Below the pieces are notes generated by a model that was not told the DNA's origin, did no database searches, and saw only the letters and a program-made list of their open reading frames with translations. The translations under genes and the position numbers were made by a program. Positions 1,245-13,401 of a DNA stretch of 13,401 bases are shown piece after piece. Position 1 is the stretch's first letter, and every line of letters begins with the position of its first letter. Origin of the DNA: a virus (lineage: Duplodnaviria > Heunggongvirae > Uroviricota > Caudoviricetes); the IMG/VR virus record IMGVR_UViG_2737471844_000004, positions 1-13,401 of that record; one strand, 5' to 3'.

Positions 1245-1253
1245 TAGTAGGCT

Positions 1254-1282
1254 GGCCGCGCCCTTCCTAGAAGGACGGGGCC
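1254..1282 (+). other. Imperfect GC-rich hairpin just after the two-gene operon (possible transcript-end or stability element)
   Basis: GGCCGCGCCCTTC-cta-GAAGGACGGGGCC: 11 paired positions, 2 mismatches, 3-nt loop, starting 10 nt after the TGA at 1242-1244. No T-run follows, so it is not a canonical intrinsic terminator. Confidence 0.3.
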
Positions 1283-1548
1283 GTAACTCCTTCTACACTT
1301 ACGCTAGAAGCTGGTAGATGAGATAGCCTAACTTTAAGTAAACCTGCCTTGCGAGTCAATTAACATTAGAAAGCGATTATGTAAATGTGGATGCTGACTT
1401 GGCGAAAAATCCTTATAAATCAATAGATAGTAGGTTTATTTTCAACTCATAGTTTTTGACTATTAATAGTATGTTATCTATCTAAAAAAAGTTTTCTGTA
1501 TTCATCGCAAAATCAATACTGCTTTAGCATTGTAGTTAGCCATCAGTT

Positions 1549-1574
1549 GCAAAAAGCCTTACCCGTAGGCTTAA
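1549..1574 (-). terminator. Weak intrinsic terminator closing the island's minus-strand transcription
   Basis: On the minus strand AAGCCT-acgggta-AGGCTT (6-bp stem; plus-strand arms 1554-1559 and 1567-1572) is followed by TTTTTG. It lies about 40 nt after the stop of the 59-aa ORF. The short stem makes it moderate at best. Confidence 0.4.
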
Positions 1575-1611
1575 CGTTTGGCTTGGCTGTAGTCTTACCG
1601 TAACGCTCCGC

Positions 1612-1791
1612 TCACCGTCGTGGCCTGTCCGGTTTCTTCCACTGATACGGCCTCACATCATCCTGCTGGTGGCGTTCCTGTTGCAGCACAACGGAAACAG
1701 GCGCTGAACACCTGTTAATTTTGCTTGCTGGTTGTTTGATTTCGGCAATGCTGCGGATCATCTCCAGCATATCGGCTTCGGTGATGGTCAT
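1612..1791 (-). CDS. Small hypothetical protein (59 aa), absent from the ORF track (below the 60-aa cutoff)
   Basis: Hand translation from the ATG at 1791: MTITEADMLEMIRSIAEIKQPASKINRCSAPVSVVLQQERHQQDDVRPYQWKKPDRPRR, stop TGA at 1614-1612. A strong SD, AAGGTG, lies 6 nt upstream of the ATG. Same strand as the island operons and followed by the hairpin at 1554-1572. Confidence 0.45.
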   Translation of the reverse strand: MTITEADMLEMIRSIAEIKQPASKINRCSAPVSVVLQQERHQQDDVRPYQWKKPDRPRR

Positions 1792-1798
1792 GATTTAC

Positions 1799-2082
1799 AC
1801 CTTAGGAAATCTTAGGGGGCTGGTTGACACTTTCCGGCTTAAGACCTTAACAAACCTTAACATCGCAGGTTGACACACTTGACACTTTTTCGCGAAAAAC
1901 CTTATCAAACCTTAGCATTTCTAAGCATGGCAACTTGACACTTTTCGCGATTTTTTTCGGCTTTTTGACGTGGTAAATCTGGCGCAAGGCCAGTAACGGC
2001 GGGGCTTACAGCGAGGTTGACACTTTTTCGCGTTCAGAGTGTAAAGTGTCAACCCGGCAAGCTGCTCAACTTGACACTTTTT
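1799..2082. repeat. Interleaved two-family repeat array; candidate packaging-specificity (cosB/pac-like) or other multi-site protein-binding region
   Basis: Family 1, TTGACAC(TTT): direct at 1824-1833, 1870-1877, 1879-1894, 1935-1949, 2017-2032, 2071-2082; inverted at 2043-2052 (AAAGTGTCAA). Three copies extend to TTGACACTTTT(T)CGCG. Family 2, ACCTTA(N), occurs in pairs phased 10 bp apart: 1799/1809 (second copy ATCTTAG), 1844/1854, 1899/1909. There is also a palindrome CTTAGcatttCTAAG at 1911-1925. The two families alternate along the 295-bp gap between the TerS-like gene and the 59-aa ORF. Confidence 0.85.
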
Positions 2083-2086
2083 GATG

Positions 2087-2614
2087 TCATTGATGGTCTG
2101 ATTTTTCCCATTCAGCTAGGGCGTTTAGCCCGGCTTCACTCCATGATTCCAGTTCATCGGCATAATCACCTGCAACATAGCAGAGTTCGCAACGCAGCAT
2201 ACTAATTGCCAGCCTGGCATTACCTCGCAAATTGTATTGTTCAAAGTAATGCTGCCCGTCGCAATCCTCAAGGCAGATAGCACCATCATCAAGAAATTGC
2301 ACTTCCCAGCCTAATTCCCCGGCTGCATCCAGCACACGCTGCTGTATGCCCTCGTCCGTTGCTGGCGCAGGAATTTTACCGTCTCTGGCCTTAACTGCTT
2401 TCCAGAACTCGCCCCACGTCATTTCCAGCGTTCTCTCTGGCCACATTTCAGAAACTGTGTCTTTTCCCTGTGCTGGTGGGCTGTTCCGCTGCTCTGTCGC
2501 TTCCACATCGATTTTTTTACCGGACATGACCACTTCGCCTTTCTCGATCCAGTCGTAAACTGTCTGGCGGCTTACGCCTTTGTGTTTGGCATATTCTGCC
2601 TTACTCATCAGCAT
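2087..2614 (-). CDS. Terminase-small-subunit-like HTH protein; candidate packaging-redirection (Rpp-like) factor
   Basis: 175-aa ORF. The N-terminus MSKAEYAKHKGVSRQTVYDWIEKGEV is a helix-turn-helix of the type at the N-terminus of lambda Nu1-like small terminases. No large terminase, portal or capsid gene follows. It is the last large gene of the operon and abuts the repeat array. An SD-like GGGTGAG precedes the ATG at 2614. Confidence 0.5.
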   Translation of the reverse strand: MLMSKAEYAKHKGVSRQTVYDWIEKGEVVMSGKKIDVEATEQRNSPPAQGKDTVSEMWPERTLEMTWGEFWKAVKARDGKIPAPATDEGIQQRVLDAAGELGWEVQFLDDGAICLEDCDGQHYFEQYNLRGNARLAISMLRCELCYVAGDYADELESWSEAGLNALAEWEKSDHQ

Positions 2615-2620
2615 TATGAC

Positions 2621-3292
2621 TCACCCTTCTTTTTCCAGTTGAGCCAGCCGCCCGGATATTTCTTCCAGTTTTTCCAGGGCTGGCTTGCAGGCCGCATCAA
2701 TAACGTCCCGGACCATTCCGGCAAGCTGTTCTTCTGCTGTCGGCGTTGTTACTTCCACGCCCGATGGTTTCCCGCCCTTATCCCAAACACCAAGCGGCAC
2801 GAGCGCAACGTGATCGATAAGAAATGGCGTACCCTCAATAAAAAAATTGTCCTCGCCCATTACATCAGGAACTTCTGCCCCACCTGAGGCACCACAAAAC
2901 ACAACCGACGGACTGGTGGATACCTCCCCTCGGGCTTTCTGGATGTAATCGATGATTTCCTGTCCGTAAATCCGGCATACGCCCCACACCTCGTCACCGC
3001 GAATATACGGCAACATGACGGTGCCAATAATGCGCGACCGTTCGCCCACGTCTTCAAGGGTTTTGCTTTCGGGATGGTCGATAATGACGGGTACTCCGGC
3101 GCAACGTTCCAGGAACTGCGGATTGAGATAAGTTTGCGGTGAACGCCAGACAAATTCTTTTTCTTCGGCGCGGTAGGCCATTCCGGTTCCTGTGATACGC
3201 AGGTTAACCAGCCACATGTTGGAAAACTGATAAGGCGACGGTAGCTGTCCGTCCCGAATCTGCTTCGCCGCCTCAATTTCTGTTAAAAGCAT
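2621..3292 (-). CDS. DUF2213/XkdF-like prohead protease or scaffold-like protein (morphogenesis-related candidate)
   Basis: 223-aa ORF. The pattern VPVIIDHP ... IIGTV ... GDEVWGVCRIY ... EVSTSPSVVF ... IDHVALVPLGVWDKGG resembles the DUF2213 layout as I recall it (H..., lS.GY, NH.ALV..GRAG). The C-terminus LEKLEEISGRLAQLEKEG looks coiled-coil. The family call is from recollection only. Confidence 0.45.
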   Translation of the reverse strand: MLLTEIEAAKQIRDGQLPSPYQFSNMWLVNLRITGTGMAYRAEEKEFVWRSPQTYLNPQFLERCAGVPVIIDHPESKTLEDVGERSRIIGTVMLPYIRGDEVWGVCRIYGQEIIDYIQKARGEVSTSPSVVFCGASGGAEVPDVMGEDNFFIEGTPFLIDHVALVPLGVWDKGGKPSGVEVTTPTAEEQLAGMVRDVIDAACKPALEKLEEISGRLAQLEKEG

Positions 3293-3316
3293 AATGTTAT
3301 CCGGTTATAAGCAATA

Positions 3317-3340
3317 AGCCCCGCCAAATCCGGCAGGGCT
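3317..3340 (-). promoter_or_regulatory. Intergenic hairpin between the 192-aa and 223-aa genes (possible attenuator or processing site)
   Basis: Plus strand AGCCCCGCC-aaatcc-GGCAGGGCT: 9-bp stem with one mismatch. On the minus strand it is followed by TTATTGCTTAT, only partly T-rich. Confidence 0.3.
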
Positions 3341-3356
3341 GAACTCAGCACGTTTT

Positions 3357-3935
3357 TCATGCCCCCGCGAGGCTTGCAACGTTAATTTTGACCAGGCGAC
3401 GGGGAGGGATTTTGAAGGCGTTCAGCCAGACGTTCGGATCTCCCTGATATTCAGTAATACGACGACCAGCTTCATCCATTCTTACGGTTTTACCCAAATG
3501 GCCCGGCGTGTTTTCCACGGCCCACTGAGCACTTTCCTGAGCAGCCTTGTAAATCTGATCTTCCAGCACCGCCAGCGTTGCAGAATCTGAAACGGAACGA
3601 ATATCCACATCACTGAATTTTTTAGCCAGCTTCTGTGCGCCAATTAATGCACGTTTGCGGTAATCCATCGACTTTTCACCAGCAAACGGGGCCGGAGCGC
3701 GACGGCCCATATTGCTGTATGCGGAATCCGCTTTAGCCTGGGCTTCTGCCAGTGAGGATTCATCTTCGACTGACGCGACGATGTTTTGATTAGCGTTATC
3801 CTCTTTTATGAAATCCTGTGCGGGGATCGCATTCAGAATTTCGATAATCTCCTGCGGAGTGCTTCCCTGCGACTCTGACAGAGCGTTAACCACCTCCATC
3901 AGTTTTAATCGCAAATCTTCTTTGCTTGCTGGCAT
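3357..3935 (-). CDS. Hypothetical protein (192 aa) of the morphogenesis/packaging operon
   Basis: The track ORF runs 3357-3944 from a GTG. The ATG at 3935 (MPASKEDLRLKLMEV...) has the SD GAGGTG 6-7 nt upstream and is preferred. The N-terminal half is acidic and helical-looking. No family recognised. Confidence 0.65.
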   Translation of the reverse strand: MPASKEDLRLKLMEVVNALSESQGSTPQEIIEILNAIPAQDFIKEDNANQNIVASVEDESSLAEAQAKADSAYSNMGRRAPAPFAGEKSMDYRKRALIGAQKLAKKFSDVDIRSVSDSATLAVLEDQIYKAAQESAQWAVENTPGHLGKTVRMDEAGRRITEYQGDPNVWLNAFKIPPRRLVKINVASLAGA

Positions 3936-3974
3936 TTTTACCACCTCTCTTTTTTCACCAAAAAATCACGACCA

Positions 3975-4148
3975 TCAGGCCGGACGTTCTACGGGATAAA
4001 GCGCCCGCTGCATTAAACGCCGGGCGACCTCATGAATGCTCGGAGCAATCCCCAGCGGAGAATTGCGGCGTTCCTCGTCCTGGATGCGCTGTAATGCTTC
4101 AATCTGATCACGAGCGAGTAAAACGGGTTTCACGCTGGCTTTTCTCAT
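3975..4148 (-). CDS. Small ribbon-helix-helix-like protein, first gene of the morphogenesis/packaging operon
   Basis: The track ORF is 3975-4172. The ATG at 4148 (MRKASVKPVLLARDQIEALQRIQDEE...SIHEVARRLMQRAL) lies 7 nt after AGGAGA; an alternative ATG is at 4154. The strand/helix/helix pattern suggests a CopG/Arc-type fold by eye. Confidence 0.5.
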   Translation of the reverse strand: MRKASVKPVLLARDQIEALQRIQDEERRNSPLGIAPSIHEVARRLMQRALYPVERPA

Positions 4149-4275
4149 AGTCATATCTCCTGAACAAAACAATGATTATGATTGCACAAACTGAAATGAC
4201 GATCTACATCATTGCAATTTATGAAACAATAACGCATGATGATCGCGTTCTTCCCATTGACTTCAATCACCTGCA

Positions 4276-4314
4276 AAAATAAAACCCGCAACACTTCTGG
4301 CTGCGGGTTTTTTA
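4276..4314. terminator. Bidirectional intrinsic terminator
   Basis: AAAAATAAA-ACCCGCA-acacttctggc-TGCGGGT-TTTTTT: 7-bp GC-rich stem (4284-4290 / 4302-4308), with an A-run upstream and a T-run downstream, so a U-tract follows on either strand. Confidence 0.7.
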
Positions 4315-4321
4315 CTGGCAC

Positions 4322-4345
4322 AAAAAAGCCGGGAAAAATCCCGGC
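4322..4345 (-). terminator. Intrinsic terminator right after the PerC-like gene
   Basis: Minus strand GCCGGGA-tttt-TCCCGGC followed by TTTTTT (plus-strand A-run 4322-4327). It begins 6 nt after the stop at 4351 and sits in tandem with the 4276-4314 terminator. Confidence 0.75.
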
Positions 4346-4350
4346 CTCCG

Positions 4351-4638
4351 TCACTGACTGCAATTTTTCGATCCAGGGTATTTCCTGAATGCCTTACCAT
4401 TGGGCTGATGTAATCCCATCCCGGCATGTGCCCGGCTGATGGTTTCGCGCATCTCCCCGAAATTATCCTGCCGTGCTGGTGGGCGTGCTGCCTTGCGGAT
4501 ACATTCCGCGCGACGTTTTGCCGCCTGTTCCCGTGCCTTGTCATCATTCGCCAGCATGATGACCTCAGCCCACCGCGCCGCCGCTCTCCGGTACAGACCA
4601 CGCGCTTCCAGTGCTTCCGCTTTGCTGTCGTGAATCAT
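4351..4638 (-). CDS. PerC-family-like transcriptional regulator
   Basis: 95-aa ORF. 'AEALEARGLYRRAAARWAEVI' matches the conserved LE..G.YRRAA.RW core I associate with PerC/Pch proteins. Its ATG (4638-4636) overlaps the upstream stop as ATGA. Confidence 0.6.
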   Translation of the reverse strand: MIHDSKAEALEARGLYRRAAARWAEVIMLANDDKAREQAAKRRAECIRKAARPPARQDNFGEMRETISRAHAGMGLHQPNGKAFRKYPGSKNCSQ

Positions 4639-5183
4639 GCGCCTGTTTTCTCCTTTGCTGCCCGGCGCTGACGTTTGCGCTTCTCATTCAGCGCCACCAG
4701 CCGCGTTTCTGCGTCCTGTTGTTCCTGTGGTGTCACCTCGCCGCACGGCTGGCCTTTCAGGTCGTAGCGTACCCCACCAGCCATTAAGGCGCGGTAATAG
4801 CGCGGACACTGCGCATAAGATGCCAGCGTCGCACGTAATGCCCCTGGCCCGAATGCCAGCCCCCTGACGGCGAGATCCTGCATCAGGTCGTCGAATATCC
4901 CCACCTTAAGCGGCTTCGGTGCTTCCCGGCTGAATAATTCAGGCCACAACTCAGTGAGGCGGTTAATGCGCCTGCGGTTTTTTCGCTGCCGTTTGGTCAT
5001 ATGCCGCCACGGTGTCGCCCCTGTGGGCTTCTGCTGCGCTTTCTGGTTACCGGGCATCACTTTATGCGCCGATGTGGTTTTATCCTGCTGCTGCTGCTGC
5101 TGCTGCTGCTGCGCCGCCTGCGTCGTTTTCTGCGGCGTGCCGTAAATGCCTTTCGGTTTTCTGTTAATAGTCAGCTTAGTCAT
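4635..5183 (-). CDS. ProQ/FinO-domain RNA-binding protein with an N-terminal poly-Q tract
   Basis: LTELWPELFSREAPKPLKVGIFDDLMQDL ... LRATLASYAQCPRYYRALMAGGVRYDLKGQPCGEV aligns by eye with E. coli ProQ ([22 protein letters not shown] ... [35 protein letters not shown]). The track ORF extends to 5231. The ATG at 5183 (MTKLTINRK) has GGGG 6 nt upstream and is preferred. Confidence 0.75.
   Translation of the reverse strand: MTKLTINRKPKGIYGTPQKTTQAAQQQQQQQQQDKTTSAHKVMPGNQKAQQKPTGATPWRHMTKRQRKNRRRINRLTELWPELFSREAPKPLKVGIFDDLMQDLAVRGLAFGPGALRATLASYAQCPRYYRALMAGGVRYDLKGQPCGEVTPQEQQDAETRLVALNEKRKRQRRAAKEKTGA
5085..5111. repeat. Perfect trinucleotide repeat (CTG)9 on the plus strand = (CAG)9 encoding Q9
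   Basis: Nine uninterrupted CTG units counted directly. In frame, giving QQQQQQQQQ in the ProQ/FinO-like protein. Confidence 0.95.
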
Positions 5184-5236
5184 GCTTTGCCCCATCGTTT
5201 TTACTGATTGTTTCATATCCGGTACTTTCATCTTCT

Positions 5237-5522
5237 GGGTAGAGGGGTAGACGGCGGGTAGATAACAAAAAATAGTCCTCTACCCACTTAACTTAATGAA
5301 AAAAAACAACTTTCACACATTAGGTAGAGGGGTAGACCGTAAAATAGAAAAGTTTGAAACTTACTTTCTTACAATCTGTGTTTTCCTCTCGCTGTATAAA
5401 AAGTTTTTTGAGCGGGGATGTTGTCTACCCCTCTACCCACTTCTCTGAAAGCCTTGTGCTACGAGGGATTCAGCGGGTAGACAATAAAAAATCACCATCT
5501 ACCCTGTGTCTACCCATCTACC
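5237..5522. repeat. Iteron-type replication origin (candidate ori) just downstream of the primase/helicase gene
   Basis: Core GGGTAGA(C): direct at 5237, 5245, 5256, 5323 (GGTAGA), 5330, 5475; inverted (G)TCTACCC at 5279, 5423, 5431, 5498, 5508, 5517. The 16-mer GGGTAGAGGGGTAGAC (5237-5252) has an exact reverse complement at 5423-5438, and its 15-mer recurs at 5323-5337. AT-rich blocks at 5286-5320 and 5338-5410 lie between the iteron clusters. Confidence 0.75.
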
Positions 5523-5539
5523 TGTTACGGGTATTACTC

Positions 5540-7288
5540 TTATAAAAATTCCTCGGTTCTCTCCGTTTGTATAACGTTGGTTTGTATTCGTCCTTTAAAA
5601 CCTCTTGTCAGGTATTCAGCCCCATATTCTCTTGCTGCTGACTTCATGGCCTTACCAAAATCACCGACACTTAATATTTCTTCTTCCCCCATATACTCCA
5701 TAAAGGCGAGATATAGTCTGTACAGGCTTGTACGCGGATTAAGATCAGTTAATCTCTTACCGCCTCCCATCATCATCCCATGCGGTTCATCAAGAAATGC
5801 AAGCGCCGCACATAACCCAATGACAGGATCAGTTTCCTGTTTTATTTTCAGAGCTTCGGCACCGTCGCGCTGCTCCAACAATAATTCCCGTGCTTTTTCT
5901 GGATCGGAAAAGTTAGCCAGTAATCGACGAATAATGACAGGTATTTCCGCCGCTATCTTTTGCGGTAACTCTTTATCCTTTTCGGTCTCCCTTACAATAT
6001 TATCGAACCGAAAAATTACACGTCGACGCGCAACGCCTCCGGCCCGTTCGGTGAATGTCATCGGCACGTTATTTGTTGCCAGCACGACGGACCTGATAAT
6101 TGTTGTGAAACGCTTTTCATATTTCGGGTTAATTTCAACTGGATCTCCACCCGTTATTTTTTTGATGCCGGATCCTTCACCTGTATATTTCGGCTGGTCT
6201 GCCAGGACAATAAGACGACTTCCGACAACCTGCGCACGCCCGCCAGCATCATCAAGCGATGTCATTTCAGCGCTTACCGTGTTCTGTTTCCCTGCCAGAA
6301 GGGTGGCTATGTGCGTGATTGTGCTCTTGCCGCTCCCGCCTTCCCCTGTGGCCTCAATAAACATCTGCCAGTCGTACCGGTTCGCCATAATCATGTACAG
6401 CGCGGCGCATATACGCATCATCTTTCGCGGGTCTTTTCCTGCGGCGTGATCAAGCCATTTATGAAAGTTTGGCGCGTTGTCGCGGATGTTCTCCCCTGGT
6501 ACTGGTGGCGTGTACTCAATGCCGTTATGCGTGGTGATCCAGTTATCCGGCGAGTGCGGGGAAAATTCGCCAGTTTTCATGTCAAGCACGCCATTAGAGA
6601 ACGGCAATAAATCACCTGACGGTTCCCCCATTGGCCTGGCCATAACTTTTAAAGCATCCACAGCATTACTTATTGCTCTCCGACTAAACGATGTTCCGTT
6701 TTCTTCGTAAATAGCCACCATTTCACGACTAAGATCCAGTGTGCTTACCGGAACCCAAAAATCATCGCGCCAGACGTGGACAACCTCACTCTCCTGATTC
6801 ATTGCTACATCCTGAAATCGTTCAGCTAAAAGTTTTGCCCTTTGGCTGTCCGCCATTCTGGAAAGAGATATTTTGTGTTTTTTCTCGGTCCTTCCTGACA
6901 GAATTTCTCCGCGCTCAGCCTGTTCGCGGATCCGTTGCAGGTAGTCGCGCCAGTTCTCCGGTTCCTGGTCGGTGATGCCTTTGTATAATTTCGCCTCCTG
7001 TACGCCAGCCAGCGCCAGCTTTTCAGCGATAGTATTGATCTGGATTGGCTCTATCTCCCCCGCGATATAGACACGCGCAAAACGGCGTTTCTCGTCAATA
7101 ATGCGGATATTCGCCAGGTCTGCCAGTTGCTTTGGCCCCAGGTAAACAGGAGGCACGTTATCGCCGTGTTTTCGTCCTTCACTTTCAATCCAGTGTTGAG
7201 CATGGGCGTAAGCATCCGTCCCGGCAAAAATGATTACCTCAGTGAATTTATCCTTCGGCTGATATTTTAGACTCGGTGCGTTTTTCAC
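5540..7288 (-). CDS. P4-family phage/plasmid primase-helicase (D5-type NTPase), replication initiator
   Basis: 582-aa ORF. Walker A GEGGSGKS is encoded at 6346-6323; a Walker-B-like LIVLADQP lies downstream. The overall pattern resembles the C-terminal domain of P4 alpha / D5-family primases. GTG start at 7288 with the SD GGAGG 6 nt upstream, overlapping the upstream stop as GTGA. An iteron ori follows. Confidence 0.85.
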   Translation of the reverse strand: MKNAPSLKYQPKDKFTEVIIFAGTDAYAHAQHWIESEGRKHGDNVPPVYLGPKQLADLANIRIIDEKRRFARVYIAGEIEPIQINTIAEKLALAGVQEAKLYKGITDQEPENWRDYLQRIREQAERGEILSGRTEKKHKISLSRMADSQRAKLLAERFQDVAMNQESEVVHVWRDDFWVPVSTLDLSREMVAIYEENGTSFSRRAISNAVDALKVMARPMGEPSGDLLPFSNGVLDMKTGEFSPHSPDNWITTHNGIEYTPPVPGENIRDNAPNFHKWLDHAAGKDPRKMMRICAALYMIMANRYDWQMFIEATGEGGSGKSTITHIATLLAGKQNTVSAEMTSLDDAGGRAQVVGSRLIVLADQPKYTGEGSGIKKITGGDPVEINPKYEKRFTTIIRSVVLATNNVPMTFTERAGGVARRRVIFRFDNIVRETEKDKELPQKIAAEIPVIIRRLLANFSDPEKARELLLEQRDGAEALKIKQETDPVIGLCAALAFLDEPHGMMMGGGKRLTDLNPRTSLYRLYLAFMEYMGEEEILSVGDFGKAMKSAAREYGAEYLTRGFKGRIQTNVIQTERTEEFL

Positions 7289-7575
7289 TTCTTACCTCCC
7301 GCAACCAACATTGCCCGGATTTTTTTTATATTCGTGGCTGCACGTCTCGCCACTGCCTGTTGTTTGTTTTCCACCAGAATAAAATCACGATCAAACTGAC
7401 GGCGCGGCATTACGCAGTCATATTCGTAAGCCTCACGGCGGTAGGTGATATTGCCTGGCGTAACGTGACGAATAACCACCCGTCCCCCGCGTCTGGTGTC
7501 CCGGAAAATATCACCGGGGCGGATTTCAGGCCGAGAGAGGCCGCTGGCAGTAAAGCCAGAATTTTTCTTTTTCAT
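7285..7575 (-). CDS. Small basic protein, possibly DUF4222-like
   Basis: 96-aa ORF. 'IRPGDIFRDTRRGGRVVIRHVTPGNITYRREAYEYDCVMPRRQFDRDFILV' resembles the DUF4222 pattern I recall from genes just upstream of primases in P4-like prophages. Confidence 0.45.
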   Translation of the reverse strand: MKKKNSGFTASGLSRPEIRPGDIFRDTRRGGRVVIRHVTPGNITYRREAYEYDCVMPRRQFDRDFILVENKQQAVARRAATNIKKIRAMLVAGGKK

Positions 7576-7579
7576 GGTT

Positions 7580-7780
7580 TTATTTTCCTGTCAGCAGTTC
7601 CGGTTTTATTTCCGCACGAATACAAAGTTCAGAAAAAAATTCAGGAGAACCAACAATCTCATTACTTTTCAGTCGGCATTGTGATTTCACTTTCCCTTTA
7701 TCCAGGTAAACCAGTACGCGTCCGGTGAAATCATCTGGCACATTAAGCACTACGGGTACATGCACTTCATGATTATGCAT
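7580..7780 (-). CDS. Hypothetical protein with one copy of a ~45-aa 'D-FTG' repeat domain
   Basis: 66-aa ORF. Its ATG overlaps the upstream stop as ATGCATAA. The domain FTGRVLVYLDKGKVKSQCRLKSNEIVGSPEFFSELC aligns with both repeats of the 7999-8364 product. Confidence 0.6.
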   Translation of the reverse strand: MHNHEVHVPVVLNVPDDFTGRVLVYLDKGKVKSQCRLKSNEIVGSPEFFSELCIRAEIKPELLTGK

Positions 7781-8006
7781 GGCTTACATCCTCCGTGAAT
7801 TTTCTTCTGTAACGCGCCTCTGCCACATATTCCGCATAGTCCGACGCAATACTAAGAATCATTTCACCCTCTGACTTGTAGCCACTGGTATTGATAAGAA
7901 AATATGCAGCTTTCATCATGTCAGCAACGCTCAACAATGCGCCCGATGTATCTTCCGGTGCGCCATCAAATTCCCGTTTCAGGGAATTAAAACGATCATC
8001 ACGCAT
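7773..8006 (-). CDS. Hypothetical small acidic protein
   Basis: 77-aa ORF, overlapping both neighbours by 8 nt. No family recognised. Confidence 0.55.
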   Translation of the reverse strand: MRDDRFNSLKREFDGAPEDTSGALLSVADMMKAAYFLINTSGYKSEGEMILSIASDYAEYVAEARYRRKFTEDVSHA

Positions 8007-8364
8007 GTTTACCCCCCTGAATGACCTGATAACCGCAACTGGTCAGCAACTCGATAAATTCCGGCAGTGTGCCGAAACAGCAATCATCACGCAGCCGTTC
8101 GCAGGATACCTCGACGCCGTTTTCGTAGTGACTCACCATACGTCCGGTAAAATGCAGATCATCATCGTGATGGCTCGTTGACGGCTTAATCAGTCGCGCA
8201 CGTTCCGCCAGTTCCAGCAATGCTTCAACGCTTCCGGCAATTGCACCATCCGGCAGGTGGTAATTACGCACTATGCGCCCGTTCTCCACATGGACCAGTA
8301 GCTGCCCGGTAAATTTCTCGTCAAACTGAATGCTGTTAAGGTCAGAAATTGACAGGTTATGCAT
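7999..8364 (-). CDS. Hypothetical protein with two tandem 'D-FTG' repeat domains
   Basis: The track ORF extends to 8382. The ATG at 8364 (MHNLSISD...) overlaps the upstream stop as ATGCATAA and is preferred. Repeats: FTGQLLVHVENGRIVRNYHLPDGAIAGSVEALLEL and FTGRMVSHYENGVEVSCERLRDDCCFGTLPEFIELL. Confidence 0.65.
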   Translation of the reverse strand: MHNLSISDLNSIQFDEKFTGQLLVHVENGRIVRNYHLPDGAIAGSVEALLELAERARLIKPSTSHHDDDLHFTGRMVSHYENGVEVSCERLRDDCCFGTLPEFIELLTSCGYQVIQGGKHA

Positions 8365-8581
8365 GGTGCACCTCCTGCACATCAGCCATGATAATTTTTC
8401 CGGCCTTATCCAGTGCCTGATCGGCTTTTAGCTGCACAAATGCTAAATAATGGGAGATGCATTCTGATTCTCTGGCTGCGTGTTTATGCGCCACACCAGC
8501 GATAGCAGAAATCTCAATAAGTGAATCCATCAGCGTTTTGATAGCGTCTACCGCTGCATCAGGCCATGTTGCATTACACAT
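8357..8581 (-). CDS. Hypothetical small protein
   Basis: 74-aa ORF. Its ATG at 8581 overlaps the upstream stop as ATGTGTAA. No family recognised. Confidence 0.55.
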   Translation of the reverse strand: MCNATWPDAAVDAIKTLMDSLIEISAIAGVAHKHAARESECISHYLAFVQLKADQALDKAGKIIMADVQEVHHA

Positions 8582-8939
8582 GTTCCACCTCCTGGCGAAT
8601 ACGGGCGGCGAATACCATCACGCAGCCATCAGGAGATTGCTGACGTGCTTCCTGTTCGCTGGTGGCCTCGATGTGAATTACGCGCGGTTGTGCCGTGCTC
8701 AGGGCGATAAAACGCCAGATAAAATTGTTCTCGCATTTCTGAATAAACAGCGTGTTTTCTTCGCGCCCTTTCCATGTTGCCGAGATATAGCCCATGTCAT
8801 TGAGCATCTCGCAGGCATCAACCAGCGTATCAGCAGCTACGTGTACAGTGTTTTTACCGTCAGCTATGCAATCACGGTGCACCGCCAGGAAGGTGTATAT
8901 AAATTTAGGGTGAGTTTGGGTATGCTGTGTTCCAGCCAT
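8574..8939 (-). CDS. First gene of the replication operon; possibly Icd-like (host cell division inhibitor-like)
   Basis: This is the 3' part of the 510-aa track ORF. An internal ATG at 8939 (MAGTQHTQTHPKFIYTFLAV..., 121 aa) has the SD GAGG 8 nt upstream and lies about 90 nt downstream of a good sigma70 promoter. 'HPKFIYTFLAV' resembles N-termini of proteins annotated Icd-like in P4-like prophages; this is weak recollection. Confidence 0.5.
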   Translation of the reverse strand: MAGTQHTQTHPKFIYTFLAVHRDCIADGKNTVHVAADTLVDACEMLNDMGYISATWKGREENTLFIQKCENNFIWRFIALSTAQPRVIHIEATSEQEARQQSPDGCVMVFAARIRQEVEHV

Positions 8940-8969
8940 AATCGTTACCTCATTTAACGGTTTGGTTAG

Positions 8970-9003
8970 ACGCCCCGCTACTGCCGCAAACAGTTCGGGG
9001 CGT
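8970..9003 (-). promoter_or_regulatory. Leader hairpin in the 5' UTR of the replication operon
   Basis: ACGCCCCG (8970-8977) and CGGGGCGT (8996-9003) form an 8-bp GC-rich stem with an 18-nt loop, between the predicted TSS (~9030) and the ATG at 8939. No U-tract on either strand. Confidence 0.35.
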
Positions 9004-9028
9004 TGTCGTTTACATCCTCTTACTGAGG

Positions 9029-9104
9029 TGTGATTTAAATTAAATTTAACTGAATCACAGGTCAAGTATTTTTTGTGATTCTTTTTTGTGTATACTGAAT
9101 CACA
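9029..9104. promoter_or_regulatory. Twin palindromic operators in the divergent switch region
   Basis: O1 is TGTGATT-N17-AATCACA (9029-9059). O2 is TGTGATTC-N15-GAATCACA (9074-9104). Both span 31 bp and are offset by exactly 45 bp; CTGAATCACA is repeated at 9050 and 9095. O1 covers the minus-strand promoter. O2 covers the putative plus-strand -10 TATACT (9091-9096). Confidence 0.6.
9037..9065 (-). promoter_or_regulatory. Sigma70-type promoter for the minus-strand replication operon
   Basis: On the minus strand: -35 TTGACC (9065-9060), a 17-nt spacer, then -10 TAATTT (9042-9037). It overlaps operator O1. Confidence 0.5.
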
Positions 9105-9126
9105 TCTTTTGTTTAGGAGAATGCAC

Positions 9127-9432
9127 ATGGCAAAAAACACTATCAACGACAAATCAAAACAGATTTCAATTCGTATCCCACATGATGCTTTTGAAGGCAT
9201 GGAATCCGTAAAACTGGACGGTGAAAGCAACGCCGGATTCATAGTAACCGCCATGCGCGGTGAGATCGCCCGCCGCCAGGCAGAAGGAAGCGGAGAAAAT
9301 CCCCTGGTTTCTTCGCTCGATGCGCTGGCGCAGGTGGAAAAAATCGGAGTCAAAGCTGCCGAGGAGATCGGGCAGCTCGTCACCGTCGCACGTGAAGAAC
9401 TCCAGCGCCGCAAGGCCAAAGAATCAGAATAA
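9127..9432 (+). CDS. Small DNA-binding regulator (ribbon-helix-helix-like N-terminus, coiled-coil C-terminus); candidate switch repressor
   Basis: The track ORF starts at 9088. The ATG at 9127 (MAKNTINDKSKQISIRIPHDAFEGMESVKLD...) lies 6 nt after AGGAGA (9115-9120). 'QISIRIPHDAFEGM' looks like an RHH beta-strand plus helix. It is divergent from the replication operon, with the operators in between. Confidence 0.65.
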   Translation: MAKNTINDKSKQISIRIPHDAFEGMESVKLDGESNAGFIVTAMRGEIARRQAEGSGENPLVSSLDALAQVEKIGVKAAEEIGQLVTVAREELQRRKAKESE

Positions 9433-9489
9433 TAACTATCATCGCCGTGGTGTGAGGAACTCCGGCGCATTGCTTTACAGGTACACAGA

Positions 9490-9684
9490 ATGACCAACAA
9501 AGAATCAACCAATACACCATCACCGGCACGGAAAAGACGGCGCAGAAAGATAGAGCACGAATCAGAAAGATTCGCGCCATGTGCTTTTGCCCTTGAGCAA
9601 TTCCTTAAAGAGTACAGGCGCACAAAAATGGGATCGCATACCTGGAAAACATCGCGGCATGGCAATGTTAAAGAGCATGAATAG
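9490..9684 (+). CDS. Possible small basic protein (very uncertain)
   Basis: 64-aa ORF downstream of the RHH-like gene (MTNKESTNTPSPARKRRRRKIEHE...). There is no convincing SD, and it lies antisense to the long minus-strand frame. Confidence 0.2.
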   Translation: MTNKESTNTPSPARKRRRRKIEHESERFAPCAFALEQFLKEYRRTKMGSHTWKTSRHGNVKEHE

Positions 9685-10106
9685 CCCACCAGCAAGCCAG
9701 CACACTGATCACATTGCCCACCAGCCGCAAATCTGGCATTGTTGGCAATGTGTTCAAGTGTGTAGCTTTCCCACTGGTGGCCCTCTGCAGTCGCCTTTGT
9801 TTTATCCAGAACGAAATCAGACATCAGATTGATCAGCACCTGGTGACCTGACAAAATCGCATCAGTCACGCCACCAGCAAAATTTTTTGCTTTCCGGACA
9901 GCGTGGCCAACGGCATTTTGCAGCGAAATATTCTGCATTTCTGGCGTGCTGTAGTAACGGTGATCAGTGCCTTCACTCTGTGCGACCACAACGCTATAAT
10001 CTGCCTCGTAGACAGTAAGCAATATGGCGCAGTAGGCTATTCGTTCACAAAGGCGCTCCGGCAACGGGGCGCTTTCTCTTTTTGTAACGGTCAGAGCGTT
10101 ACACAT
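9685..10106 (-). CDS. Coding-looking 5' segment coupled to the antirepressor gene; 3' end unresolved (no stop until 8574)
   Basis: The ATG at 10106 overlaps the upstream stop as ATGTGTAA. The first ~135 residues (MCNALTVTKRESAPLPERL...YTLEHIANNARFAAGG) have protein-like composition, after which the frame turns Ser/Cys/Arg-rich. The lower coordinate is a judgement, not a stop codon. Confidence 0.3.
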
Positions 10107-10899
10107 GGCTGTTTTCCTCCATGCGACGGGCTAACCAACGCTGCGAAAGGCGAATTAATTCAGCTTTCCGCTGGTGGTAGTCCTGGCCTAACTCAATCAG
10201 CGTGATATTGCTCTGCTCAAGGTAAGAAAGGTGCTCAAGCTGCAACACGCTCATGTGGTCGCGTGGTTCACCTGTAATGCCGTTCGCCTGCGCCCACTGT
10301 TTTGCAGTCATGCCACCCAGCACGATACGCGCCAGCATGTTCGCTTCCGTGGTGTAGTGGTGCTGGAGTGTGTTTTTACCCAGTTCAGCCCGGTACGCCT
10401 CCAGCGCGGCACACATTGGCTTAAAGTAGCTGGCAACTGTGATACGGGCTTTCAGTTCCCGGCGTAACGCTGCGGAACGTACAGGCGCAACCTTGTGTAG
10501 CTCCTCCTCGCATTTGATAAAGTACTGACGAACGGCGCGCCCCTGTTCGGTGCGCTCGACCATCGCCAGTTCTTTCGCCATGTTGATAGTGCTCAGGTAG
10601 TCGTGCTCTACACGTTGGCGAGATTTTGCGCTCACCGGATTGGGGGAGGTCAAATTTTCTACGAATTCAAAATCCACGCCCTTTTTAAATCCGTACTCAT
10701 CAATGCGTCCTTTAATCCAAGTTGTGAAATCACGCTTCACACCCAGCGCCTTATGCAACGCTCTGGCGCTAACAATATTGGTTTCACGCCCGCCAATAAC
10801 GCCGGAAATAACCGGGATAATTTCGCCGAAATTTTGTTGGCTCTGGTTTTCAGGCCGAACGAAGCCCTGCCCCTGTACGGGCGTTTTTCGCAGTTTCAT
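10099..10899 (-). CDS. Phage antirepressor-type protein (AntA/Rha-like N-terminal domain)
   Basis: 266-aa ORF. 'IVSARALHKALGVKRDFTTWIKGRIDEYGFKKGVDFEF ... DYLSTINMAKELAMVERTEQGRAVRQYFIKCEEEL' matches the AntA/AntB antirepressor pattern as I recall it (ARdLh..Lgv..dFs.Wik.rI..y.f..g.Df ... dy.l.l.mAKel.Mve....G...R.YFI..E). The SD AGGAG lies 5 nt upstream. Confidence 0.75.
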   Translation of the reverse strand: MKLRKTPVQGQGFVRPENQSQQNFGEIIPVISGVIGGRETNIVSARALHKALGVKRDFTTWIKGRIDEYGFKKGVDFEFVENLTSPNPVSAKSRQRVEHDYLSTINMAKELAMVERTEQGRAVRQYFIKCEEELHKVAPVRSAALRRELKARITVASYFKPMCAALEAYRAELGKNTLQHHYTTEANMLARIVLGGMTAKQWAQANGITGEPRDHMSVLQLEHLSYLEQSNITLIELGQDYHQRKAELIRLSQRWLARRMEENSHV

Positions 10900-10977
10900 A
10901 AAAACTCCTGCTATCGAATTAAGTTACTTTTTATTTGCTGGTGGATAGCTGGGGCTTCTGGCCCCGTAGCTGTTTTA

Positions 10978-11196
10978 TCAGGCTGATGTGTTTCGGCGTT
11001 CTTCCAGCCAGCGATTAACCTCTACCGCATCGAATGCAGTGCTTTTCTCACCCAGTTTGATGGGCTTAGGCATCTTCCCGCTACGCACCCAACGATCGAG
11101 CGTTGATAAGCTGGTACCCAGCAATTCAGCCAGGCGATAGCGGCGGATATAGCCAGTTGCAGGGATTGCGGTTTGAAGTATTGGTTGGTTTTTCAT
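10978..11196 (-). CDS. alpA: AlpA-family transcriptional regulator/excisionase-like HTH protein
   Basis: 'YIRRYRLAELLGTSLSTLDRWVRSGKMPKPIKLGEKSTAFDAVEVNRWLEERR' fits the AlpA (Phage_AlpA) pattern. The track ORF extends to 11289, but that upstream part looks non-coding. Likely starts are the ATG at 11196 or 11205. Confidence 0.8.
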   Translation of the reverse strand: MKNQPILQTAIPATGYIRRYRLAELLGTSLSTLDRWVRSGKMPKPIKLGEKSTAFDAVEVNRWLEERRNTSA

Positions 11197-11308
11197 ATGC
11201 CCCATTACCTTTGTTGTTGGTTTGTGATTCGTAATAGGGGCATTAAATAACAAATGAAATGATGTGTGTGTGAGTTTTAGAAAAAACACTGTGACTTTTC
11301 TTATTTCA

Positions 11309-12091
11309 CTATCTAAAACGCTCTCGCCAGCTTTTCCAAGTGTTCTTATCTGGTTGTGGGATTACAATGCCTTTTTGAGCACCTATTTGTGCAATTTTTT
11401 TATTTAACTTGTTAGGCGGCAAAGATATTATCTCATTGTCTGTTAATCCGGCAATTCTTAATAATCCATATATCATTTTAAATTGATGTATTGTTAATCT
11501 TGGTAACTTGTGATTTTCTTTTTTTATAGTGTTGTTTATGGAGTAAATTGGAAATCCATTTGTTATTGATTTATAAAGGTTGTCAATGTGCTCTCTGGTT
11601 ATTAATAATGAATCAGGTGTAATCTTAATGTTGCCGCTTGTTTTTGCATGGCATGAAAAAATAAATGTGGGATTCGCAGTGCGACGTGAAAGCGGTATGG
11701 ATGTATTCATAGAGATAGTTTTGTTTCTTACTATAGTCTCTTGAATATCAAAAACTCCAGAAACCTTTGCCTCAAAAATAACACCATTTTCTTTTATTTC
11801 ATCACTATATTCATGAATAATTATGCCAAGAGAGGAAATTTCTTTTTTGATGAGAAAAGAAATAAAATCAATATAGTCTTCATCCTTTGGCCATGTAAAA
11901 TCACGATAACCAAAATACCCCTCACAGTAAGCATTTTTTATTTTTGTGGCAAAATTAATTCTGTTAATATCCTGCCAATGCCATAAATCATCTATCTCAC
12001 ATTCTAAAATTTGAGCTGCTCTATCTAAAGAGCAGAATTCTAATGGAGGTAATTGTTTTTTTTGCCATATTGTTTCATTAATATTTGTCAT
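11309..12091 (-). CDS. AT-rich orphan protein (260 aa) between int and alpA; function unknown
   Basis: Complete ORF, about 33% G+C in a hand-counted 60-nt sample versus about 50% or more in the island core. No family recognised. The N-terminal 'LEFCSLDRAAQILECEIDDLWHWQ' and C-terminal 'LTDNEIISLPPNKLNKKIAQIGAQKG' look loosely HTH-like. Confidence 0.7.
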   Translation of the reverse strand: MTNINETIWQKKQLPPLEFCSLDRAAQILECEIDDLWHWQDINRINFATKIKNAYCEGYFGYRDFTWPKDEDYIDFISFLIKKEISSLGIIIHEYSDEIKENGVIFEAKVSGVFDIQETIVRNKTISMNTSIPLSRRTANPTFIFSCHAKTSGNIKITPDSLLITREHIDNLYKSITNGFPIYSINNTIKKENHKLPRLTIHQFKMIYGLLRIAGLTDNEIISLPPNKLNKKIAQIGAQKGIVIPQPDKNTWKSWRERFR

Positions 12092-12147
12092 GATTGCACT
12101 ACCGTTATGAAAAAATATATTCGTTAATGAATTAGCCTTAATGTCTA

Positions 12148-13401
12148 TTATTTATTAGATTGCGTGATGTCAGAACATATCATGTTTTCTAAATTCACCA
12201 GCAAATCAGTCCACTGTGCCAGCGCCGCTTTGCGCTCATCAAAATATTGATGGCGGTTATAAATGCCCTCTACGCCTTTTATGCGGTGGTTAAGGCATCG
12301 TTCAGCAACGATCGGGTCAACTCCCAATGCTGCTAAATGTGTTCGTGCTGTTCGCCGGAAGTCGTGAATTGTAAAGTTGGGGACGTTCGGCATTTCTGCT
12401 CTGACTTTTGCCAATGCAACAGGAAGGGTGCTTTCCTGGATGTGAGGGATCATTCTGTGCTGCATTTTTCTGGCAGGTAATACCCATGCGCTATTGCATG
12501 AAAATGTGTGCAATTCTCGCAACCATTCTATGGTCGCTGGTGGTAATGGTATGTCGATAGCATCGCCATTTTTAGTTCGTTGTTCTGGTAGATGCCAAAT
12601 CGCGCCATCTAAGTCGAATTCATCCCACCTGGCGGCGCATAACTCCATTTTTCTGACACACAATGCTAAGAGCAACTTAAAGGTTAATTCGTTCTGGCGG
12701 CTGAATCCTTTGGCTTTACGCATGGCCTGAAAAAATTGGATTAATTCGTCACGGTTCAGCCAGCGATCACGAGATAATTCTTTCCCACCAGCATCTGATA
12801 CTTCAAAAGCTGAGCAGGGGTTAACCTCCAAAGCAAGGCGTTTAATACCGTAGTCAAATATTCGACGTGTCCACCGAAGAACGTCAGTAGCAATTGTTGG
12901 AGCGCCTCTATCAACAATGCTTTTAAGCATGGCATCAATATGGCGTGGTTTTACATCTTCAACCTTCATGTGGCCTATGGCAGGATTTATGTCTTTATCA
13001 ATGCGCCTGCGGAGAATATCTGGGTGTTTCCATCGGGGAAGTATTTGCCGTGCAAAGTATTCGGCGGCAAGTTCAGAAACATGCAGCGCGTTTTTTTCAG
13101 CTTCTATTTTTGCCAGTGCTTCGGCTTTACGCTGCTGTTTTTCTGCGGCTACGTCATATCCCAAAGCAACTCGTGCGGAAAGTTCTTTTGCCAGTTCCCT
13201 GGCTTTTGATAACGATAATTCAGAATATGAACCAATAAGCATGGCACGAGATTTTCCTGCCAGTTTATATCGAAACCGCCATGTCGGGGATCTATCCACC
13301 TCTCTATACCGGAGATATAGCCCACCACCATCAGCACGACCTTCGAAATGTTCTCCGGCTTTTATCCATGCGCGGATCTGCATATCTGTGAGTTTTGGCA
13401 T
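12148..13401 (-). CDS. int: P4-type tyrosine integrase (DUF4102-like N-terminal domain)
   Basis: 417-aa ORF starting at the window edge. The N-terminus 'LTDMQIRAWIKAGEHFEGRADGGGLYLRYR...WRFRYKLAGK' is typical of P4-family integrases. Catalytic-type motifs are present: CVRKMEL (Arg), HDFRRTARTH (His-x-x-Arg), LNH, GIYNRHQY (Tyr). Confidence 0.9.
   Translation of the reverse strand: MPKLTDMQIRAWIKAGEHFEGRADGGGLYLRYREVDRSPTWRFRYKLAGKSRAMLIGSYSELSLSKARELAKELSARVALGYDVAAEKQQRKAEALAKIEAEKNALHVSELAAEYFARQILPRWKHPDILRRRIDKDINPAIGHMKVEDVKPRHIDAMLKSIVDRGAPTIATDVLRWTRRIFDYGIKRLALEVNPCSAFEVSDAGGKELSRDRWLNRDELIQFFQAMRKAKGFSRQNELTFKLLLALCVRKMELCAARWDEFDLDGAIWHLPEQRTKNGDAIDIPLPPATIEWLRELHTFSCNSAWVLPARKMQHRMIPHIQESTLPVALAKVRAEMPNVPNFTIHDFRRTARTHLAALGVDPIVAERCLNHRIKGVEGIYNRHQYFDERKAALAQWTDLLVNLENMICSDITQSNK

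Follow-up and report, generated by a model that had tools for sequence, protein, structure and literature searches.

The stretch of DNA analysed here, positions 1 to 13401 of IMG/VR virus record IMGVR_UViG_2737471844_000004 (in the following the window, 13401 nucleotides (nt) in length), raises the question whether it is a phage satellite of the phage-inducible chromosomal island (PICI) type or the remnant of a prophage and, in the former case, which phage serves as its helper and how this helper is exploited. A preliminary description of the same DNA had favoured a satellite, and comparison with related genomes supports a PICI-type satellite rather than a prophage remnant. Very probably, the window is the interior of a Gram-negative, AlpA-regulated PICI of about 13.8 kb which belongs to the lineage containing EcCICFT073 and is integrated in the 3' end of Escherichia coli yicC. 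With it, a known, abundant and catalogued PICI family gains a new mosaic member, and this classification in itself adds nothing new. We propose, with a probability of roughly 0.35, that it represents an unstudied PICI sub-lineage which parasitises intact Rac-family lambdoid prophages (Terminase_6N/Terminase_2, probably headful) via two devices undescribed for PICIs. The first would be a split copy of a prohead protease-scaffold protein, consisting of a free, catalytically intact protease and a capsid-binding C-domain protein, which remodels or sabotages helper capsids. The second would be a winged helix-turn-helix (wHTH) protein, not related to Rpp, which directs packaging via an array of AAGTGTCAA and TGYTAAGG motifs. 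If true, a satellite protease with a detached scaffold C-domain would be a new way to disturb helper capsid assembly.

The location of the element was determined first. The host of the window sequence is E. coli. A megablast search with the whole window matched 2018 of the 5426 complete E. coli genomes in part; in two of them, more than 80% of the window was covered at 97.9% identity. Its nearest relatives are the loci L012 (99.8% identity across 11.3 kb) and L020 (98.8% identity to the window's first 5.2 kb). In both, the island is bounded by the 20-bp direct repeat TTACTCAATATTCTGAATCT at the 3' end of yicC. The preliminary description had anticipated such attachment site (att) repeats at the 3' end of a tRNA gene; the repeats are present, and the target is yicC instead. 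The repeat constitutes both attL (in L012) and attR (in L019 and L020) and matches the empty K-12 site, which after alignment with both junctions yields TTATTCGATGTTCTGAATCT as attB. The projected attP context is …AAATCG-TTACTCAATATTCTGAATCT-TATTGTTGAG…, and the island brings a synonymous replacement of the last six yicC codons (QIQNIE*). Arm-type repeats of the integrase (GGTGTACAC-like) were found within both island ends. The start codon of the integrase gene is the exact window end, both att repeats lie about 190 bp beyond the window ends, and the window is wholly within the island. With the att repeats placed as in L012 and L020, the window's island would measure about 13.8 kb, compared with about 13.5 kb in L001; this is within the approximately 10–15 kb between att repeats expected of a PICI. 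Positions 1–1549, which the preliminary description had left outside the element, are cargo inside the island: position 1549 is the junction of the conserved core with variable cargo, and matches to other PICIs start at about 1550.

The surroundings of the island were read in the relatives. The exact integrase protein was found in 545 contig blocks and the exact DUF3800 protein encoded at positions 52–762 in 190. In six of six places read, the integrase gene and the 3' end of yicC are separated by 189 bp, and rph, pyrE, slmA and dut lie beyond yicC; likewise in six of six, the DUF3800 gene lies at the dinD/yicG end of yicC-site PICIs, followed by ligB, gmk, rpoZ and spoT. Both flanks thus consist of housekeeping genes, and phage structural genes were found in neither flank of the relatives read. 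Of the sequence observations which the preliminary description had named as refuting a satellite, missing att repeats and structural genes in the flanks, neither was made. The criteria of Fillol-Salom et al. (2018) for Gram-negative PICIs include an att site not used by prophages; PICI-type islands occupied the yicC site in 12 of 12 places read. In the supplement of a 2018 survey, yicC-dinD appears among the PICI att sites, with EcCIRM13514 located there, the ABU 83972/CFT073 island 4152946–4166644 designated 'PICI?', and CfCIP10159 at yicC-yicG with ATCGAGTAAG (PMC6092414). The latter sequence is the reverse complement of part of the att core of the window's relatives, and EcCIRM13514, CfCIP10159 and the ABU 83972 island share att site and core sequence with the window's island. 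The ABU 83972 island is 93–97% identical to the window from int to antA, in the small open reading frames (ORFs), in the PerC/ProQ genes and in a 175-amino-acid (aa) protein gene with its repeat array. It differs in carrying another primase allele, two small ORFs where the window has the protease and scaffold-domain genes described below, and a 662-aa RNA-binding-domain protein as cargo. In further relatives, the same int is found alongside a RepA-type helicase or different late genes.

The gene content is that of a Gram-negative PICI by the criteria of Fillol-Salom et al. (2018). From position 13401 to about 1550 all genes except two small ones are oriented on the minus strand (genes named below lie on this strand unless the plus strand is given), and the conserved order of integrase, AlpA-type regulator and primase-replicase in one transcription direction is that of EcCICFT073. 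The genes are intact, without pseudogenes, and overlap mostly by 4–8 nt. No coding-strand ORF matched a capsid, portal, large terminase subunit (TerL), tail or lysis (holin, endolysin) family of Pfam, PHROGs or NCBIfam; phage head genes are represented only by a protein of prohead-protease fold and a scaffold-domain homologue. In these respects the preliminary description holds: profile scans and iteron counts placed int, alpA, antirepressor, switch, primase/helicase and iteron origin where it had located them, the structural and lysis genes are absent, and the genes are intact and tightly coupled. The tail, lysis and complete head genes of a temperate prophage were found neither inside the att bounds nor in the flanks, and the window is without the own major capsid, portal, head-tail adaptor/connector and TerL genes that distinguish capsid-forming PICIs.

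The replication module consists of the primase-helicase Pri-Rep (582 aa, 5540–7288; D5_N and DUF5906, TIGR01613, phrog_864) and, immediately 3' of its gene, a putative origin (5224–5522) with two direct and two inverted 15-bp iterons and half-sites around an AT-rich core. The iteron GGTAGAGGGGTAGAC occurs in four copies at 5238–5522, two direct and two inverted, which flank the AT-rich stretch; 0.08 copies are expected by chance. In PICI origins two iteron sets flank an AT-rich region immediately 3' of the initiator gene (PMC6092414), and the layout in the window is that of the tested origins.

For EcCICFT073, the prototype of the Gram-negative cos PICIs, located at ycfD-phoQ in CFT073, the function of Pri-Rep and origin, helper dependence and cos packaging were shown experimentally (PMC6092414; PMC6739421). 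The window shares with this island a length of 11–14 kb, unidirectional transcription and the order int, alpA, divergent YlcI/YnfO gene, Icd-like operon, DUF4222, primase, iteron origin, PerC, late-gene homologues, wHTH protein and accessory genes. The identities amount to 70% for the primase (full length), 74% for the Icd-like protein, 53% for PerC and 51% for the DUF4222 protein. In contrast, the integrases are only 27% identical and the att sites differ. Furthermore, the window carries a ProQ/FinO gene where EcCICFT073 has a single-stranded DNA-binding protein (SSB), possesses an additional AntA antirepressor and lacks a lambda-type cosN. The late module differs as well: that of EcCICFT073 consists of homologues of the lambda E/D capsid and decoration proteins, that of the window of a protease and a scaffold-domain protein of the Rac-SA53 type.

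This late module carries the first part of our proposal. Its two genes encode a DUF2213 protein of 223 aa (2621–3292; PF09979, phrog_6216 positions 115–328) and a protein of 192 aa (3357–3935, or 195 aa from a GTG at 3944 in the ORF 3357–3944; phrog_6216 positions 409–544). Both correspond to parts of one 430-aa head protein of the phage Rac-SA53, which is composed of a DUF2213 domain, an Ala/Glu/Lys-rich linker and a C-terminal domain. The island DUF2213 protein shows 54% identity to residues 3–226 of this protein, while the C-terminal 130 residues of the 192-aa protein (61–189) show 64% identity to residues 295–423. The Rac-SA53 gene is flanked by the portal/MuF-like genes on one side and by the major capsid gene on the other, an interval which is the usual seat of protease-scaffold genes. 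Judged by homology, the two island genes are a split homologue of the Rac-SA53-type prohead protease-scaffold protein. The island genes stand in the inverse order of the phage gene, with the C-domain gene ahead of the protease gene, and lack the linker; this argues for an evolved split and not for a frameshifted relic. A terminator-like hairpin is located between the 192-aa gene and the DUF2213 gene (3317–3340, minus strand), and the two halves may therefore be expressed at different levels.

The DUF2213 protein, termed merely DUF2213-like in the preliminary description, has the fold of an assemblin-type prohead serine protease. The AlphaFold2 model of the protein reached a predicted local distance difference test (pLDDT) value of 87.3, and nearly all top matches of this model in a Foldseek search against the PDB were herpesvirus assemblin proteases and T4 gp21, at modest scores (probability up to 0.97, E 8e-3 to 0.1, TM 0.3–0.47). 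Residues H73, S127 and H161 are invariant in 36 DUF2213 homologues, and their spacing resembles that of the His/Ser/His triad of cytomegalovirus assemblin. Fold and conserved His/Ser/His set together are those of the assemblin/HK97-type prohead serine proteases, within the modest scores given. The DUF2213 protein is hence a putative prohead protease. Sequence searches of the PDB with the three late proteins (DUF2213, 192 aa and 175 aa) gave no match. The protease form of 223–229 aa is retained in Citrobacter, Salmonella, Enterobacter, Pantoea and Klebsiella.

Possibly, though in our estimate less likely than not, the protease and scaffold-domain genes of an otherwise genuine PICI are recently captured fragments of helper late genes without a role in hijacking. 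Capture of helper late genes is known for PICIs (PMC10111431), the capsid and decoration homologues of EcCICFT073 are dispensable for interference and transfer (PMC6092414, PMC10111431), and related yicC-site PICIs exist without the protease/scaffold-domain module. Recent capture is contradicted by the only 54–64% identity to the phage protein, and an idle fragment by two intact genes of fixed length with invariant catalytic residues in several genera and by the distribution of the module, which follows that of the matching phage head module.

This last point was examined in the complete E. coli genomes. The island's protease/scaffold-domain module is present in 34 of 5426 genomes and the Rac-SA53 head module, from portal to major capsid, in 90 (in full in 81 of these). 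With all 34 module genomes compared with about 60 of the 90 phage-positive genomes, at least 21 of the former carried both modules, at separate chromosomal loci; 0.55 were expected (hypergeometric p ~1e-30). E. coli A17 (NZ_CP028757) and JNU (NZ_CP083263) are examples of strains with both the island and a Rac-SA53-type prophage. Rac-SA53 possesses a Terminase_2 small terminase subunit (TerS) and a Terminase_6N TerL, a pair from which we infer headful packaging. Co-occurrence and terminase pair together point to intact Rac-family prophages, not cos phages, as the best helper candidates for the island's sub-group. The cos phages which the preliminary description had named as helpers are doubtful, as neither a lambda nor a P2 cosN is present in the window. 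The co-occurrence would thus name intact Rac-type prophages as the helper of a PICI sub-group with packaging and interference genes unlike those of the Rpp/cos type.

Two observations concern these prophages. The E. coli genome ETEC1732 (NZ_CP122823.1, locus L196) harbours a full-length Rac-type prophage at ttcA (1–29574) and a related PICI next to smrA (36162–49901), separated by six chromosomal genes (approximately 6.5 kb). This proximity might expose the PICI to lateral transduction. The late module of the ETEC1732 PICI also encodes a 205-aa protein and a 687-aa protein with a lytic-transglycosylase domain. Moreover, the DUF1073/Phage_portal_3 portal gene of Rac-SA53-type prophages is labelled 'anti-CBASS protein Acb1 family protein' in RefSeq; Pfam and PHROGs assign the same gene as a portal protein, and the RefSeq label may mislead.

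The second part of the proposal concerns the 175-aa protein (2087–2614), encoded in the rppA position of EcCICFT073. It combines an N-terminal wHTH of the MerR/Xis/TerS type with a C-terminal alpha/beta domain of no known fold, for which no convincing structural match was obtained. The TerS profile covers only residues 1–42, i.e. the wHTH. Thus, of the TerS-like HTH protein in the preliminary description the HTH stands, together with the DUF2213 protein, the 192-aa protein and the repeat array of its minimal morphogenesis set; the TerS assignment rests on 42 residues common to TerS, Rpp and Xis proteins and is not upheld. The family is limited to Enterobacterales, and a tblastn search of GenBank phages with the protein gave no match.

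The gene is followed by the repeat array (1824–2086), a candidate cis site for the 175-aa protein in packaging or recognition. The array comprises the repeat families D1, D3 and D5, and TTGACACTTTT occurs in six copies at 1824–2081, where 0.41 are expected. On the gene strand, AAGTGTCAA is present in five direct copies and one inverted copy, 54–82 bp apart, and TGYTAAGG in four copies which form two pairs about 10 bp apart. The array is retained in L001 and L002. In Enterobacter, a homologue of the 175-aa protein with 37% identity is followed by an array of the same motifs (AAGTGTMAA and doubled TGYTAAGG), from which it appears that gene and site belong together. A blastn search of GenBank phages with the array gave no match. 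A degenerate scan of IMG/VR for doubled TGYTAAGG yielded 120 loci, all but one of them chance matches; the sole real one is a PICI. We also considered that the array is a copy of the helper's pac site and rejected this possibility: the array motifs are absent from the late region of Rac-SA53 (lysis genes, terS, terL, head genes and the first genes downstream).

The 175-aa protein agrees with RppA/B/C in gene position and in an adjacent, island-specific repeated DNA site, and differs in that sequence homology is absent outside the HTH and no cosN is nearby. BLASTP aligned it with EcCICFT073 RppA over 9/25 residues, within the HTH alone, so the window is without RppA. RppC carries a three-helix coiled-coil dimerisation domain (PMC6739421), in contrast to the unmatched alpha/beta C-domain of the 175-aa protein. 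Neither homology over both the DNA-binding and the dimerisation domain nor an adjacent lambda-type cosN/cosQ, which together define the Rpp family, was found. An EcCICFT073-type or P4-type cos-PICI was rejected as well, since searches that allowed up to 2 mismatches to the lambda cosN GGGCGGCGACCT and up to 3 to the P2/P4 cos found neither site. Rpp works through an island-specific recognition site which differs from that of the helper (PMC6739421). An island-specific site combined with an island-specific wHTH protein corresponds to this mode, which favours a packaging-specificity role. By analogy with Rpp, and with moderate confidence, we assign such a role to the 175-aa protein and its array.

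The main rival to this assignment is Cox/Xis-like regulation. Here the element would still be a PICI; the 175-aa protein and its array would form a transcription or recombination-directionality module, or would control the cargo, and the island DNA would be packaged by lateral or generalised headful transduction or by other means. TTGACA hexamers in the array, which immediately precedes the 59-aa ORF and the cargo, fit this explanation, as does the absence of the array motifs from the late region of the candidate helper, terS included. On the other hand, an island-specific site unlike that of the helper is precisely the mode of Rpp, and the gene occupies the rppA position at the end of the late module, where EcCICFT073 rppA has an adjacent cos site. 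In addition, the array is at least 1.8 kb from attR and thereby too far away for an excision-directionality site, and array and gene stay paired down to 37% protein identity. We regard this explanation as unlikely, though it deserves to be kept in view.

Homologues of the 175-aa protein with 57% identity were also observed in Klebsiella pneumoniae (L021–L023, gene 9001–9516) as the last gene of small int-primase elements. These elements sit amid late genes of a myovirus-like prophage (tail sheath, tube, capsid fragment), a layout that resembles the helper-embedded PICIs described in PMC10111431.

Taken together, the proposed exploitation of Rac-family prophages would proceed as follows. Upon induction of the helper prophage, the AlpA-dependent leftward operon would be switched on, Int would excise the island at the 20-bp core, and Pri-Rep would fire the iteron origin. 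The 192-aa protein, via its homologous C-domain, might compete with the helper protease-scaffold protein for the capsid protein, and the island protease might stand in for the displaced helper protease. The 175-aa wHTH protein would bind the adjacent AAGTGTCAA/TGYTAAGG array and mark island DNA for the helper terminase, a step analogous but not homologous to that of Rpp, and the island DNA would be packaged into helper-made particles. Known capsid-remodelling proteins of satellites are CpmA and CpmB of the Staphylococcus aureus pathogenicity islands (SaPIs) and Ccm of SaPIbov5. The window proteins resemble these proteins, of which Ccm is named in PMC6092414, as satellite homologues or mimics of a helper head-assembly protein that engage the helper capsid protein. 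They differ in that the window proteins are homologues of a prohead protease and of the C-domain of a protease-scaffold fusion and bear no sequence relationship to the SaPI proteins.

Several points weigh against this reading of the window, from the PICI itself to its proposed exploitation of a helper. The co-occurrence counts cover about 60 of the 90 phage-positive genomes and ignore clonal relatedness, and many of the genomes are related pig enterotoxigenic E. coli (ETEC) strains. The wHTH of the 175-aa protein resembles excisionases (Xis, Cox, RdfS) as closely as TerS or Rpp, and neither an Rpp homologue nor a lambda or P2 cosN nor a full-length TerS was found in the window. The flanks of the window's island were taken from relatives of 99.8% and 98.8% identity, and induction, excision, replication, packaging and interference of the island are all inferred. 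In the five-component scheme of SatelliteFinder, the capsid-morphogenesis and TerS components would be matched only loosely, the morphogenesis genes being a protease and a scaffold-domain homologue rather than the usual capsid homologue, and the element would be placed in Type B or C as a low-confidence class.

Two further explanations concern the nature of the element itself. A decayed prophage remnant, which has lost its structural and lysis genes and no longer functions as a satellite, would account for the phage-like integrase, antirepressor, Icd-like protein and primase and for the fragments homologous to a head protein. It is very improbable: housekeeping genes lie directly outside the 20-bp att repeat of an element of about 13.8 kb, pseudogenes are absent and gene overlaps of 4–8 nt are kept, hundreds of contigs from several genera show this modular layout, and the core is homologous to that of a tested PICI. 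Moreover, the protease homologue keeps its 223–229 aa and the invariant His/Ser/His set from E. coli to Klebsiella and Pantoea, and the inverted order of the head-protein homologues does not fit a simple frameshifted relic. A P4-like satellite dependent on a P2-type helper, compatible with the P4-type integrase architecture, AlpA and the C-terminal 'phage/plasmid primase, P4 family' domain (int, AlpA and primase alone cannot separate P4-like satellites from Type C PICIs in SatelliteFinder, PMC10085698), is likewise very improbable, because the P4-like set of psu-delta-sid operon, epsilon, alpha primase and P2-type cos was not found (Psu, Sid, Delta and Epsilon families of PHROGs and Pfam were unmatched in any ORF, and P2/P4 cos was absent even at 3 mismatches), the target is not a tRNA, gene order and small ORFs match EcCICFT073, and the late genes have their homologues in a lambdoid Rac-type phage and not in P2.

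The remaining genes of the PICI are integration, regulation and accessory genes. The P4-type tyrosine integrase (417 aa, 12148–13401) contains Arm-DNA-bind_3, Phage_int_M and Phage_integrase domains. AlpA (PF05930, HTH_17) comprises 72 aa from an internal ATG (10978–11196) of an ORF that extends to 11289, and RefSeq annotates a 219-nt gene in relatives. Between both genes lies a 260-aa orphan (11309–12091) of 31% GC, for which Pfam, PHROGs, NCBIfam and PADLOC gave no match. In ABU 83972 this int-alpA slot, which looks like a second cargo hotspot, is filled by another gene, of 208 aa. Next to alpA an AntA/AntB-type antirepressor of 266 aa is encoded (10099–10899; PF08346 E 5.5e-23, phrog_5817). 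The two plus-strand genes follow, a 64-aa ORF (9490–9684; phrog_21027 E 5e-28, annotated in L001 and L012) and, upstream of it, a candidate regulator of the YlcI/YnfO family with 101 aa (9127–9432; NF041551 E 3.7e-18, phrog_6522).

The switch is the divergent control region (8940–9126) between the YlcI/YnfO-family gene and the Icd-like operon. It contains a GC-rich hairpin, shows no codon-phase bias (63, 54 and 47 substitutions at the three codon positions) and has the same divergent layout as in EcCICFT073. The first gene of the leftward operon encodes a 121-aa protein with a C-terminal Icd-like domain (8574–8939; NF033153 E 6e-23). It starts with an ATG at 8939 preceded by a ribosome-binding site, and its substitutions by codon position amount to 2, 1 and 33. 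A P1 c4-like antisense RNA upstream of this gene was not detected by Rfam in the whole window. The sole Rfam match, a weak ncr1175 hit at 4278–4347, reflects just the two terminator hairpins described below.

A minus-strand ORF of 510 codons (8574–10106) spans the switch and is open (503–518 codons) in relatives which are 82–95% identical and carry insertions and deletions (indels). A substitution bias of the coding type was found only in its last 121 codons and in the stretches antisense to both plus-strand genes. The segments 8940–9126 and 9685–10106 show no such bias and are nevertheless free of stop codons, with net indels of +21 and +3 in the former. Consequently, the ORF was rejected as a real gene for its first 390 codons. 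The open frame possibly serves as a leader which is translated through and thereby links antA with the Icd-like operon, or is a product of chance.

Downstream of the Icd-like gene, four overlapping small early-operon ORFs of 66, 77, 121/127 and 74 aa (7580–8581; phrog_340, 24341/2512 and 5146) have homologues in EcCICFT073. They are followed by a DUF4222 protein of 96 aa (7285–7575; PF13973), whose gene overlaps the primase start. Beyond the origin a ProQ/FinO-domain protein of 198 aa with a poly-Q tract (4635–5231; PF04352 E 9e-24) and a PerC-family regulator of 95 aa (4351–4638; PF06069 E 2e-32) are encoded. The ProQ/FinO-domain protein contains a run of nine glutamines, and its length of 174–198 aa among close relatives suggests repeat slippage. 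Two tandem terminator-like hairpins (4278–4347, minus strand) follow perC. Between them and the late module lies a 57-aa ORF (3975–4148), annotated in relatives and without a family match in PHROGs and other profile scans. The last conserved gene of the PICI core is a 59-aa ORF (1612–1791), also annotated in relatives.

The cargo at positions 1–1549 consists of two overlapping plus-strand genes. The first encodes the DUF3800 protein of 236 aa (52–762, about 37% GC; PADLOC PDC-M04A, PDLC04353 E 6.6e-98, PF12686 in relatives), the second its partner of 161/163 aa (753–1244, low GC; PADLOC PDC-M04B, PDLC04357 E 8.8e-74, phrog_16230). This PDC-M04 pair (52–1244) is a candidate defence system; the literature searched contained no mention of PDC-M04. 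DUF3800 genes are known as retron effectors, and structured RNA motifs were described upstream of DUF3800 genes (PMC7736814, PMC5737381). The window contains only 51 nt upstream of its DUF3800 gene. PICIs have accessory slots between int and alpA and after the last core gene, which hold immune systems (PMC10085698). The two accessory slots of the window, occupied by the 260-aa orphan and the PDC-M04 pair, match those described. Thus, a candidate defence pair and a low-GC orphan sit in the two places where PICIs carry immune systems.

Two minor observations were made at the yicC site of relatives. In L012, a gene for a 319-aa reverse transcriptase (RVT_1; 6142–7101) is located between slmA and pyrE, 3 kb from the island; it was not found in the other relatives. 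The contig L147 (IMGVR_UViG_2617271084_000003) carries an attP-like junction (L080, 1749–1784). An excised circle was rejected as its origin, since the two primase copies of the contig are only 89% identical. Instead, two different PICIs stand in tandem at yicC, and the hybrid att junction between them contains the 20-bp core unchanged. One of these PICIs has at its end the PDC-M04 cargo found in the window, and the other starts with an identical integrase and encodes an SSB as well as lambda-type capsid and decoration homologues.

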